Source: an uncultured bacterium (GTDB lineage: Bacteria > Gemmatimonadota > Gemmatimonadetes > Gemmatimonadales > Gemmatimonadaceae). From it: DNA of 49,154 nt. Below the pieces are notes generated by a model. That model was not told the DNA's origin. It did no database searches and saw only the letters and a program-made list of their open reading frames with translations. The position numbers and the translations under genes were made by a program. Shown here piece after piece: positions 3,132-4,374 of this stretch (within the stretch, counting starts at the first letter, position 1; the number at the start of each line of letters is the position of its first letter). The DNA lies in NCBI GenBank assembly GCA_963978095.1, contig CAXBQP010000020.1, positions 1 to 49,154 of the forward strand, in the 5' to 3' direction.

Positions 3132-3138
3132 GCGGGAA

Positions 3139-3705
3139 TTATGGCGTACTGCCCGATGCTTTTGCCACTGCGGCGCCGAGCTCGTCGTACGAGTCGGCGG
3201 AGAGCTCGCGGAACGGAGACATCACGTGGGCGATGCGGCCGTCCGGGCCGACCACGAACACATTGCGCTTCGCGAAGTTGATGAGCGGAATCTTCGAGTC
3301 GTAGCGCTTGACGACGTCTCCCGTGGGGTCGCTCGCGAACATGATCGGGAACTTCTTTTCCCGGGCCCAGTTCACGAGCACGGTGTCGTCGTCGGTGCTG
3401 ATGCCGATGACCGTCACCTTGTTGCCGTTGTTGAAGAGCTTGGCGTACTGATCACGGTACGCCTCCATTTGGACTGTTCAGCCCTTGGTCCGTGCCTTGG
3501 GGAAGAAGGCGAGGACGACGGTTTGTCCCTTGAGGTCGGACAGGTGGATGGGCTTTTCCGTGAGCCCGTTTTTCGTGGCGCCTGCGAGGGTGAAGTCCGG
3601 AGCGATGTCGCCGACTTTTGGCATGGTTTGCGCGTGGAGGTTCACGGCCGGGCGCGCGAGGAGTAGCGCGGCGGCGGTGAAACGAAGGATCGCGGGGCGG
3701 TTCAC
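3139..3705 (-). CDS. Exported peroxiredoxin (BCP/PrxQ-like) with in-frame TGA, probable selenocysteine (188 aa with readthrough)
   Basis: GTG 3705 overlaps the upstream stop (GTGA). Reads ...FFPKARTKG-TGA(3478-3480)-TVQMEAYRDQY..., in frame with ORF 3139..3468. The TGA aligns with the Cys of the paralog FFPKARTSGCTAQM. Hairpin follows. Confidence 0.88.
3442..3463 (-). promoter_or_regulatory. Putative bacterial SECIS hairpin
   Basis: mRNA GGCGUAC-CGUGAUCA-GUACGCC, a perfect 7-bp stem starting 14 nt after the UGA, with G as second loop base. Confidence 0.75.
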
Positions 3706-4259
3706 TTGGCCCCCGTGACTTTCTTGAGTTGGGCGGCGAGTTCGGTGTAGGAATCCTCGACCATCGGCTTGAAGGGCTTGGTCGTGGCGGCGATCTTGCC
3801 GTCCGGACCCACGATGTAGAGGAGGCGGTTCTCCATGGACCCGTTGTAGGCGCCGTAGGCCTTGCCCATGGCGCCGTTGGCGTCGCTGGCGAAGAGCATC
3901 GGGAAGTTGGCTTCCTTCGCCCAGTTCGCGAGGGTGGTGTCGGCGTCCACGCTCACGCCGATCACCGTGATCCCCTTGCCGCCATTGAAGATCTCGGCCC
4001 ATTTGTCGCGGTAGTGCGTCATCTGGGCGGTGCACCCGGACGTTCGCGCCTTCGGGAAGAAGGCGATGACCACCGTCTGGCCTTTGAGTTTCGCGAGCGA
4101 GATCGGGGCGGCGGTCACGCCGGTTCGGGTGGCACCGGGCAAGGTGAAGTCCGGCGCGACGTCGCCGACTTTGGGCCCGACCTCCTGGGCCTGGGCGCGC
4201 ATCGTTGGGAGGACGAGGCTCGCGGCGAGGGTTGCGACGGTGACGGCAAGTCGGCGCAT
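3702..4259 (-). CDS. Exported peroxiredoxin (BCP/PrxQ-like), Cys paralog
   Basis: AGGAG RBS before ATG 4259; signal peptide; VGDVAPDFTL; PxxxTxxC (PKARTSGC); conserved Arg in NRLLYIV. Confidence 0.9.
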   Translation of the reverse strand: MRRLAVTVATLAASLVLPTMRAQAQEVGPKVGDVAPDFTLPGATRTGVTAAPISLAKLKGQTVVIAFFPKARTSGCTAQMTHYRDKWAEIFNGGKGITVIGVSVDADTTLANWAKEANFPMLFASDANGAMGKAYGAYNGSMENRLLYIVGPDGKIAATTKPFKPMVEDSYTELAAQLKKVTGAK

Positions 4260-4374
4260 CGAGGTGCACTCCTGGAATGAAGTACGAGCGAGGATGGAAC
4301 GGTTGGAATAACGGCCGAACCGGAGGATCGCGCAACGGTCCAGACAGTAGAACCGGACTCGCACACCGGAAGTT

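Follow-up and report, generated by a model that had tools for sequence, protein, structure and literature searches.

A candidate selenocysteine-containing peroxiredoxin of the BCP/PrxQ type, interrupted by an in-frame UGA codon, in an uncultured member of the Gemmatimonadaceae

The window described here is a 49,154-nucleotide stretch of DNA (contig C20, CAXBQP010000020.1) from a 2.98-Mb assembly (GCA_963978095.1; 101 contigs, 91% complete), and it carries two tandem peroxiredoxin genes, of which the downstream one has a UGA codon at its peroxidatic position that is very likely read as selenocysteine (Sec, U) (Table 1). On the minus strand, the frame of this gene extends from a GTG at 3705 to a TAA at 3139-3141, with a single internal stop in the context FFPKARTKG-TGA-TVQMEAYRDQY, and the open reading frame (ORF) listing accordingly splits it into 3139..3468 (109 residues) and a second piece that ends at 3478. 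The upstream paralog, which runs from an ATG at 4262 to a TGA at 3702-3704, shares 53% identity with the Sec protein over 177 residues, and its stop codon and the initiating GTG of the Sec gene overlap within GTGA (3702-3705). At the site aligned with the internal TGA, this paralog reads FFPKARTSGCTAQM (FFPKARTSG-C-TAQM), with a TGC codon. The first-pass annotation had already described one gene broken in two between these start and stop codons, with the TGA at the Cys position of the peroxiredoxin motif opposite the TGC of the paralog, in a Cys-free protein with both halves intact. We found each of these features in the sequence, in that the translated protein contains no Cys and one U, and the catalytic Arg in its KRNVFVV segment (R147) is invariant in 32 aligned sequences.

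Table 1. Positions of the peroxiredoxin genes and associated elements in the window
Feature	Position	Strand	Basis or detail
Candidate selenoprotein gene, predicted exported 1-Sec peroxiredoxin, 188 codons	3139..3705	minus	Translation, Pfam AhpC-TSA, AlphaFold2/Foldseek
UGA codon 76, predicted Sec at the peroxidatic position, PxxxTxxU	3478..3480	minus	Aligned with the catalytic Cys in both the paralog and solved BCPs
Signal-peptide-like extension, residues 1-26	3628..3705	minus	Arg-bearing start, AAALLLA core, LHA-Q end
Candidate SECIS hairpin, GGCGUAC-CGUGAUCA-GUACGCC	3442..3463	minus	5' arm 3463-3457, loop 3456-3449, 3' arm 3448-3442
Tandem paralog, predicted exported 1-Cys peroxiredoxin, 186 residues	3702..4262	minus	TGC at the catalytic codon; all-Cys clade on the tree

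To place the protein within a family, we compared it with domain models and solved structures. The Pfam AhpC-TSA model (PF00578) matched residues 31-160 with 100.5 bits (cut-off 26) and the paralog with 92.7 bits, and the closest solved chains by sequence were archaeal and bacterial BCP-type peroxiredoxins, foremost 2ywn/4g2e (E = 1.2e-16), with 2cx3, 3hjp, and 3drn also included. Here, the catalytic Cys of the solved BCPs aligns with U76 and the Arg of their K-R-x-V-F-V motif with R147, and P69 and T73 likewise fall on their Pro and Thr. The AlphaFold2 model, predicted from a 32-row alignment, is a single domain with a mean pLDDT (predicted local distance difference test) of 90.9, and its top Foldseek matches are all peroxiredoxins, led by BCPs (E down to 5.9e-14). 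When set against the cytoplasmic BCP/PrxQ structures (2ywn/4g2e, 2cx3, 3hjp, 3drn, and 5enu), the likeness is clear at the level of sequence (E = 1.2e-16 to 4e-9) and fold (target TM-score 0.81-0.86), though these proteins are only ~27-32% identical, lack a signal peptide, and carry Cys rather than Sec, several of them together with a resolving Cys. These structures align from residue 28 only, the pLDDT over residues 1-30 is 49-74, and the orthologs and the paralog have a common N-terminal layout, with the hydrophobic stretch ending in A-x-A-Q in the orthologs. This N-terminal extension is probably a signal peptide, and the protein is probably exported. Moreover, since there is no second Cys, the protein would be of the 1-Cys (here 1-Sec) type, for which an external reductant is needed; taken together, it is probably an exported 1-Sec enzyme of the BCP/PrxQ type.

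In a collection of 5.8 billion proteins, the full-length relatives (181-206 residues, at most 67% identity) are Cys forms, annotated either as peroxiredoxin Q/BCP or as redoxin domain-containing protein. Those closest to the window protein (93%, 89%, and 82% identity; P0029, P0043, and P0115) exist only as 109-residue entries that begin with MEAYRDQYAK. As these entries start at the Met three codons past the UGA, public gene calls evidently cut the Sec form in half.

Insertion of Sec at UGA would call for dedicated machinery, and we found all four of its components in the window's own genome, each scoring above its curated cut-off. These are a tRNA-Sec (C68:5429-5521) with 85.4 bits (cut-off 47) and, according to ARAGORN, the anticodon tca, an adjoining selD (386.6 bits), selA (540.6 bits), and selB (341 bits over the full model). 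Also consistent with Sec insertion is a short RNA hairpin that begins 14 nt past the UGA and has a 7-bp stem and a minimum free energy (MFE) of -10.3 kcal/mol, which we regard as a candidate selenocysteine insertion sequence (SECIS). According to the Fig. 2 legend of PMC13188914, the bacterial SECIS model (bSECISearch) comprises a loop of 3-9 nt with G and then G/U in the first loop positions, a stem of 4-16 bp, 16-37 nt between UGA and loop, and an MFE of at most -7.5. The window hairpin agrees with all four of these criteria, having a loop of 8 nt with G-U at loop positions 2-3, its 7-bp stem, 21 nt between UGA and loop, and an MFE within the published range. It deviates from the consensus in that its sequence is unusually fixed throughout the clade, the loop being identical in 92 of 97 copies, and in that it is without an Rfam match; an Rfam search with the hairpin gave no family, the one hit being a chance match to a long non-coding RNA (E = 0.21) below the gathering score.

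Comparison among relatives supports the same stem. RNAalifold predicted exactly this stem from 28 sequences, and all seven pairs are kept in 26 of 26 distinct sequences (100% paired cells). Two pairs covary, with pair 33-54 occurring as G-C, C-G, and U-A, and pair 34-53 as G-C and A-U, the A-U variant of the latter altering two amino acids jointly. When the 3' partner was shifted by 1-3 columns, pairing fell from 88.7% to 23-46%. A lower helix, between the UGA region and the AAGCUCUU stretch (alignment A1, columns 10-16 with 56-62), had been suggested by a single-sequence fold and was dropped as a candidate.

The hairpin RNA also encodes part of the peptide E-A-Y-R-D-Q-Y-A, and we therefore compared its stem, loop, and codons in 97 Sec and 29 Cys copies from the phylum (Table 2). 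This set, in which a few genomes occur twice, excludes L053 and also L128-L132, the loci from outside Gemmatimonadota. The rare codons of the Sec forms are fixed where the Cys copies differ, which means that constraint by the RNA on synonymous sites is confined to copies with the UGA, and the peptide A-Y-R-D-Q-Y-A is near-invariant among Sec forms because of the stem. The Gln codon lies outside the supported stem, and the retention of CAA points to a constraint on the sequence of the spacer that separates UGA and hairpin.

Table 2. Stem, loop, and codon usage at the hairpin in Sec and Cys copies from Gemmatimonadota
Feature	Sec copies	Cys copies	Share in genome
7 stem pairs	85/97	0/29	
6 stem pairs	12/97	6/29	
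Loop CGTGATCA	92/97	1/29	
Arg codon	CGT in 95/97	CGC in 24/29	CGT 13.7% of Arg codons
Asp codon	GAT in 94/97	GAC in 21/29	GAT 33.8% of Asp codons
Gln codon three codons past UGA (window 3469-3471)	CAA in 89/97	CAG in 25/29	CAA 15.7% of Gln codons

The UGA itself is widely shared. Among 41 relatives from the genus and order, the best match has exactly one in-frame TGA in 36, is found only in uninterrupted form in four, and is missing in one. All 28 TGA copies (from 27 loci, one of which has two Sec copies in tandem) have the codon in one alignment column (FFPKARTxG-U-T), where three orthologs (G003, G013, and G021) and 15 of 15 upstream paralogs have TGC or TGT. Counts that include L030 rest partly on an unpublished genome (G006), whose removal lowers each count by one and leaves the conclusions unchanged. 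In an even draw of 151 Gemmatimonadota genomes (requested as at least 90% complete, with matches taken at E <= 1e-30), 118 had a match; by hand count, 95 had the TGA form, 23 had uninterrupted (Cys) forms only, and 33 had none; all matches were confined to families f1-f7 of one class. One observation from outside the phylum may be added, namely that a Bryobacterales metagenome-assembled genome (MAG) (L129, ~2501-2899) encodes a distant peroxiredoxin with TGA at the catalytic position (FFPAAFTGG-U-TKEL), which is without the Gemmatimonadota hairpin sequence and sits on a long tree branch.

In a quick maximum-likelihood tree of 126 copies (93 U and 33 C; catalytic column masked, with incomplete-domain rows and L053 left out), the upstream paralogs make up their own all-Cys clade (19 rows), and the window gene belongs to a 37-row clade (29 U and 8 C) with the Cys orthologs nested within it. 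A second clade, with 63 rows, is all Sec. At least five changes between U and C are needed on this tree, two of which are forced by starred branches, and their direction is not readable without a secure root. As a side observation, the tandem arrangement varies in L041:1501-2598 (genome G015), where a second Sec copy replaces the usual Cys paralog, both Sec genes containing a TGA that is followed by the same SECIS hairpin.

We also searched the same 151 genomes for selA, which was present in 122, and cross-tabulated the outcome by hand; no p-value is attached, as related genomes are not independent. All 95 genomes with the TGA form had selA and none lacked it, while of the 23 with Cys forms only, selA was present in 5 and absent in 18, and of the 33 with no peroxiredoxin match, it was present in 22 and absent in 11. 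Both states occur even within genera, such that in g12 the TGA form goes with selA (G047 and G116) and the Cys form with its absence (G113), and likewise in g53 (G172 as against G151 and G171). Among the 41 closer relatives, selA was found in 38, and G028 had neither selA nor the peroxiredoxin. A loss of selA in the Cys-ortholog genomes of the genus itself was considered and not seen, and the association belongs to the wider phylum sample only.

This pattern bears on the alternative that the UGA is read through without Sec, either by a near-cognate tRNA that inserts Trp or Cys, or by the Sec pathway inserting Cys when selenium is scarce. The inserted residue is not distinguishable by sequence analysis, and the Cys orthologs evidently work, both of which lend this explanation some room. 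Still, selA accompanies the TGA form in all 95 genomes and is absent from most Cys-only genomes, and the hairpin shows G-U in its loop and a spacing that fit a SECIS bound by SelB, features for which simple read-through would have no need. We judge this alternative to be very improbable.

Alternatively, the TGA might be a nonsense mutation or a base-call error in an ordinary Cys-peroxiredoxin gene. A point mutation would be expected to leave just such a lone in-frame TGA, which differs from TGC by one base, and public gene calls do break at this codon, with fragments as the closest database relatives. The coding constraint beyond the UGA tells otherwise, with Nei-Gojobori dN/dS values against the two closest orthologs (dS ~0.5-1.3) of 0.071 and 0.024 upstream, and of 0.058 and 0.114 downstream; over all Sec pairs, for which dS is saturated, the medians are 0.18 and 0.37, respectively. 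Moreover, the TGA is bridged unchanged by independent contigs, two from DNA runs of two other studies (3134-3619, without differences, and 3441-3911) and two from metatranscriptome runs of one study (3355-3537 and 3326-3568, without differences). Given as well that the same TGA recurs in most relatives and across the phylum, with a conserved hairpin behind it, we consider a pseudogene or sequencing error to be highly improbable.

Genuine termination, which would yield an N-terminal peptide of 75 residues and, separately, a protein of 109 residues from the ATG at 3468, has in its favor that this ATG lies three codons past the TGA and that the short database entries begin there. However, such a split would cut one thioredoxin-fold domain, which is covered by one Pfam match and modeled as one unit, through its active-site helix, and would leave a C-terminal piece devoid of the catalytic residue and the signal peptide. 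Besides, the Met is a conserved residue of the domain, as the Cys paralogs also have Q-M there, and two separate products are hence very hard to credit. As for an organism-wide change of code in which UGA would be a sense codon for Trp or Gly, the open frame and nothing further speaks for it, whereas TGA is the commonest stop of the genome (it ends 806 of 1306 long ORFs and the neighboring paralog), the codon aligns with Cys instead of Trp or Gly, and a genome-wide codon-likelihood scan for in-frame TGAs flanked on either side by coding signal returned 55 candidates, most of which look like adjacent same-frame genes and only two of which are convincing TGAs inside domains, leaving the idea with a negligible chance.

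The second of these two is a formate-dehydrogenase-alpha-like (FdhA-like) selenoprotein candidate (G000:C24:986-3298, minus strand), with its TGA at C24:2684-2686 (L134) in the motif SCNRT-U-HAPSV and a 10-bp hairpin after the UGA. It scored 648 bits with TIGR01591, slightly below the cut-off of 666, and the FdnG-type model TIGR01553 was rejected as a poor fit (76.5 bits). With regard to stop codons, we also observed that the Sec genes of L023-L052 end in TAA or TAG in 25 of 28 cases and in TGA in three, as against the 62% of long ORFs in the genome that end in TGA, and that all 15 upstream Cys paralogs end in a TGA that overlaps the GTG start of the next gene. Shared ancestry may account for this bias.

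We thus return to the reading of UGA-76 as Sec, with the two fragments as parts of one peroxiredoxin gene, in which we have high confidence. It is the reading that the first-pass annotation had put forward when it proposed Sec recoding over a pseudogene, and what that annotation had named as bearing on it came out in its favor: the genome encodes selA, selB, selD, and tRNA-Sec; TGA is an ordinary stop elsewhere; orthologs have either TGA or TGC/TGT at the codon, and purifying selection acts on the sequence before and after it; and the TGA is neither private to the strain nor a sequencing error. The conserved and co-varying SECIS hairpin, on which that annotation was silent, adds to this support.

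Several points weigh against this reading or narrow it. The evidence for selenium in the protein is all comparative and none of it direct. With respect to the RNA, the whole 86-nt region folds no better than shuffled sequences (z = -0.86), which limits the support to the short hairpin; the proposed lower helix is weak, with 77.5% pairing across relatives and many broken cells; and five of the seven stem pairs never vary and are uninformative on structure. For a scan of public genome contigs, which added 71 U copies and 16 of the C form from 80 loci, QMEAYRDQ was among the patterns used, and the resulting U/C ratio is biased toward Sec forms, a bias from which the even draw of 151 genomes is free. 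The RNA-library contigs show presence and are no proof of transcription, as DNA may occur in such libraries. As to the machinery, the three Cys-ortholog genomes of the genus (G003, G013, and G021) keep selA, and a Cys form does not require its loss; conversely, in the TGA-form genome G017 (61% complete), neither selA nor selB was found above cut-off, and in G004 (100% complete, 300 contigs), also of the TGA form, we found only a C-terminal fragment of selA, plus selB above cut-off. Lastly, none of the NCBIfam equivalogs fits the protein, with 68.2 bits for the BCP model PRK09437 (cut-off 140) and 47.1 for the PrxU model NF040737 (cut-off 270), and the equivalog model for Deinococcus PrxQ likewise gave only 48.6 bits (cut-off 260). 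The protein resembles BCP, its nearest solved relative, yet is not filed as a BCP/PrxQ equivalog.

That Sec-peroxiredoxins exist in bacteria, as the first-pass annotation had stated, agrees with the literature. Those with a TxxU motif (PF00578/COG1225) are described in PMC1088965 as a bacterial selenoprotein family and have long been cataloged, a 2016 survey reports them from 78 organisms (PMC5029168), and a 2026 review lists them with the motif PxxxTxxU (PMC13188914); the prototype is PrxU of Eubacterium acidaminophilum, and the family is covered in all three sources. As presented there, the family has in common with the window protein an AhpC/TSA domain, a peroxidatic Sec in T-x-x-U, a bacterial SECIS right after the UGA, and widespread Cys homologs. 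The window protein differs in not being a PrxU equivalog (47 vs 270 bits) and in being nearest to BCP/PrxQ, in its signal-peptide-like extension and the lack of any other Cys, and in its confinement, among the searched genomes, to one class of Gemmatimonadota. The main texts searched make no mention of Gemmatimonadetes, and full-text literature searches on selenoprotein peroxiredoxin or selenocysteine in Gemmatimonadetes/Gemmatimonadota brought up unrelated papers only. The gene is, then, a new and unannotated member of an already known Sec-peroxiredoxin family.

The active-site Pro of the PxxxTxxC motif is usually described as absolutely conserved. At this position (-7 from the Sec/Cys codon, in L023-L127), we observed Pro in 37 of 96 Sec copies as compared with 29 of 29 Cys copies, the other Sec copies having Phe (26), Tyr (25), Ile (3), Val (2), Ser (2), or Ala (1). 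On the quick tree, at least four changes between Pro and non-Pro are needed, all among Sec rows. The window protein itself keeps the Pro (P69, ~3499-3501).

For the reductant that a 1-Sec enzyme would need, we looked at gene neighborhoods by clustering the ORFs around the gene in 105 related loci. In the window's own family, the neighbors are a DAG-kinase-like gene, a DUF4147/MOFRL gene, a CN-hydrolase gene, and an agmatine-deiminase-like gene. Elsewhere, a gene for a TlpA-like thioredoxin-fold protein and/or CcdA (DsbD_TM) directly follows the Sec gene on the opposite strand, tail-to-tail, in 25 of the 105 loci. These are without exception U forms, drawn from several deep branches of the all-Sec clade and including Longimicrobiales MAGs, and the TlpA-like proteins have in common a signal-peptide-like start and an invariant W-C-x-x-C. 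The window's own genome also encodes an adjacent pair of this kind (G000:C3:120644-121800; L138:1498-2798), consisting of CcdA (DsbD_TM, 169 bits) and a putatively exported TlpA-like thioredoxin (WCENC), and the orthologs of this pair in other families lie next to the Sec gene. The same arrangement of Sec-peroxiredoxin, TlpA-like, and CcdA genes was noticed on a 1569-base contig from a MAG titled Phycisphaerae (L127), which may be mis-binned.

A comparable system is the periplasmic peroxide-reduction pathway PprX-TlpA-ScsB of Caulobacter crescentus, as described in PMC3322552. By that description, PprX is an exported peroxiredoxin of the BCP/PrxQ subfamily with an N-terminal signal sequence, a property that the window protein appears to share, and many relatives here have genes for a TlpA-like thioredoxin and a DsbD-family electron transporter adjoining the peroxiredoxin gene. 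Differently, PprX has Cys together with a resolving Cys where the window protein has a predicted Sec and no resolving Cys, the transporter here is of the CcdA-type DsbD_TM rather than ScsB, and the link comes from gene neighborhood alone and is absent in the window.

Certain points count against such a recycling route. The TlpA/CcdA pair is not adjacent to the gene in the window or in the genus, and elsewhere the genes are convergent and not co-transcribed. Pairs of the TlpA/CcdA type also have a role in the maturation of cytochrome c, and gene order that is shared by related genomes does not count as independent evidence. A complex prediction for the window's Cys paralog (used in place of the Sec protein) with the TlpA-like protein of the same genome gave 0.36 against 0.24 for the control and speaks neither for nor against binding. 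Taken on its own, recycling by TlpA/CcdA is a tentative suggestion to which we give somewhat less than even chances.

As a working model, SelB together with Sec-tRNA(Sec) would bind the 7-bp hairpin 14 nt past UGA-76, and the ribosome would insert Sec there rather than terminate. The product, with its N-terminal signal peptide, would be exported, and Sec76 as the sole redox residue, seated in the PxxxTxxU pocket with Thr73 and Arg147, would reduce peroxides and thereby become a selenenic acid. With no resolving Cys, the enzyme would have to be recycled by an external thiol protein, for which the best candidate would be the exported TlpA-like WCxxC thioredoxin, supplied with electrons via the membrane protein CcdA, much as may be imagined in parallel with PprX-TlpA-ScsB. 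Of these elements, the computation shows the UGA and its conservation, the SECIS structure, the Sec machinery, and the peroxiredoxin fold; Sec insertion itself, export, peroxidase activity, and recycling by TlpA/CcdA are inferred. In its full extent, this would amount to a selenium-based form of a peroxide-scavenging pathway in the cell envelope, with an exported 1-Sec peroxiredoxin and TlpA-like/CcdA, occurring class-wide, with a switch to Cys together with loss of the Sec trait and with the Pro dispensable in Sec forms; as a whole, we regard this broader proposal as speculative and rather unlikely to hold in every part.

With regard to its meaning, public gene sets list a 109-residue fragment in place of a predicted selenoprotein that occurs in about two thirds of the Gemmatimonadota genomes sampled, and there is no curated NCBIfam model for the protein and no Rfam family for its SECIS. 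Selenium use in this abundant phylum of soil and freshwater is therefore under-reported. The family also offers a natural comparison of Sec and Cys, as both forms are found within it, in some cases as tandem genes of a single genome, with a switch that tracks the presence or loss of selA within genera, and it shows clearly how an RNA structure can restrict the choice of codons as well as the encoded peptide (A-Y-R-D-Q-Y-A). Were the Pro indeed dispensable, selenocysteine would relax a structural requirement of peroxiredoxin catalysis, and if export and TlpA/CcdA recycling are true, cell-envelope peroxide defense would be extended to selenium chemistry.

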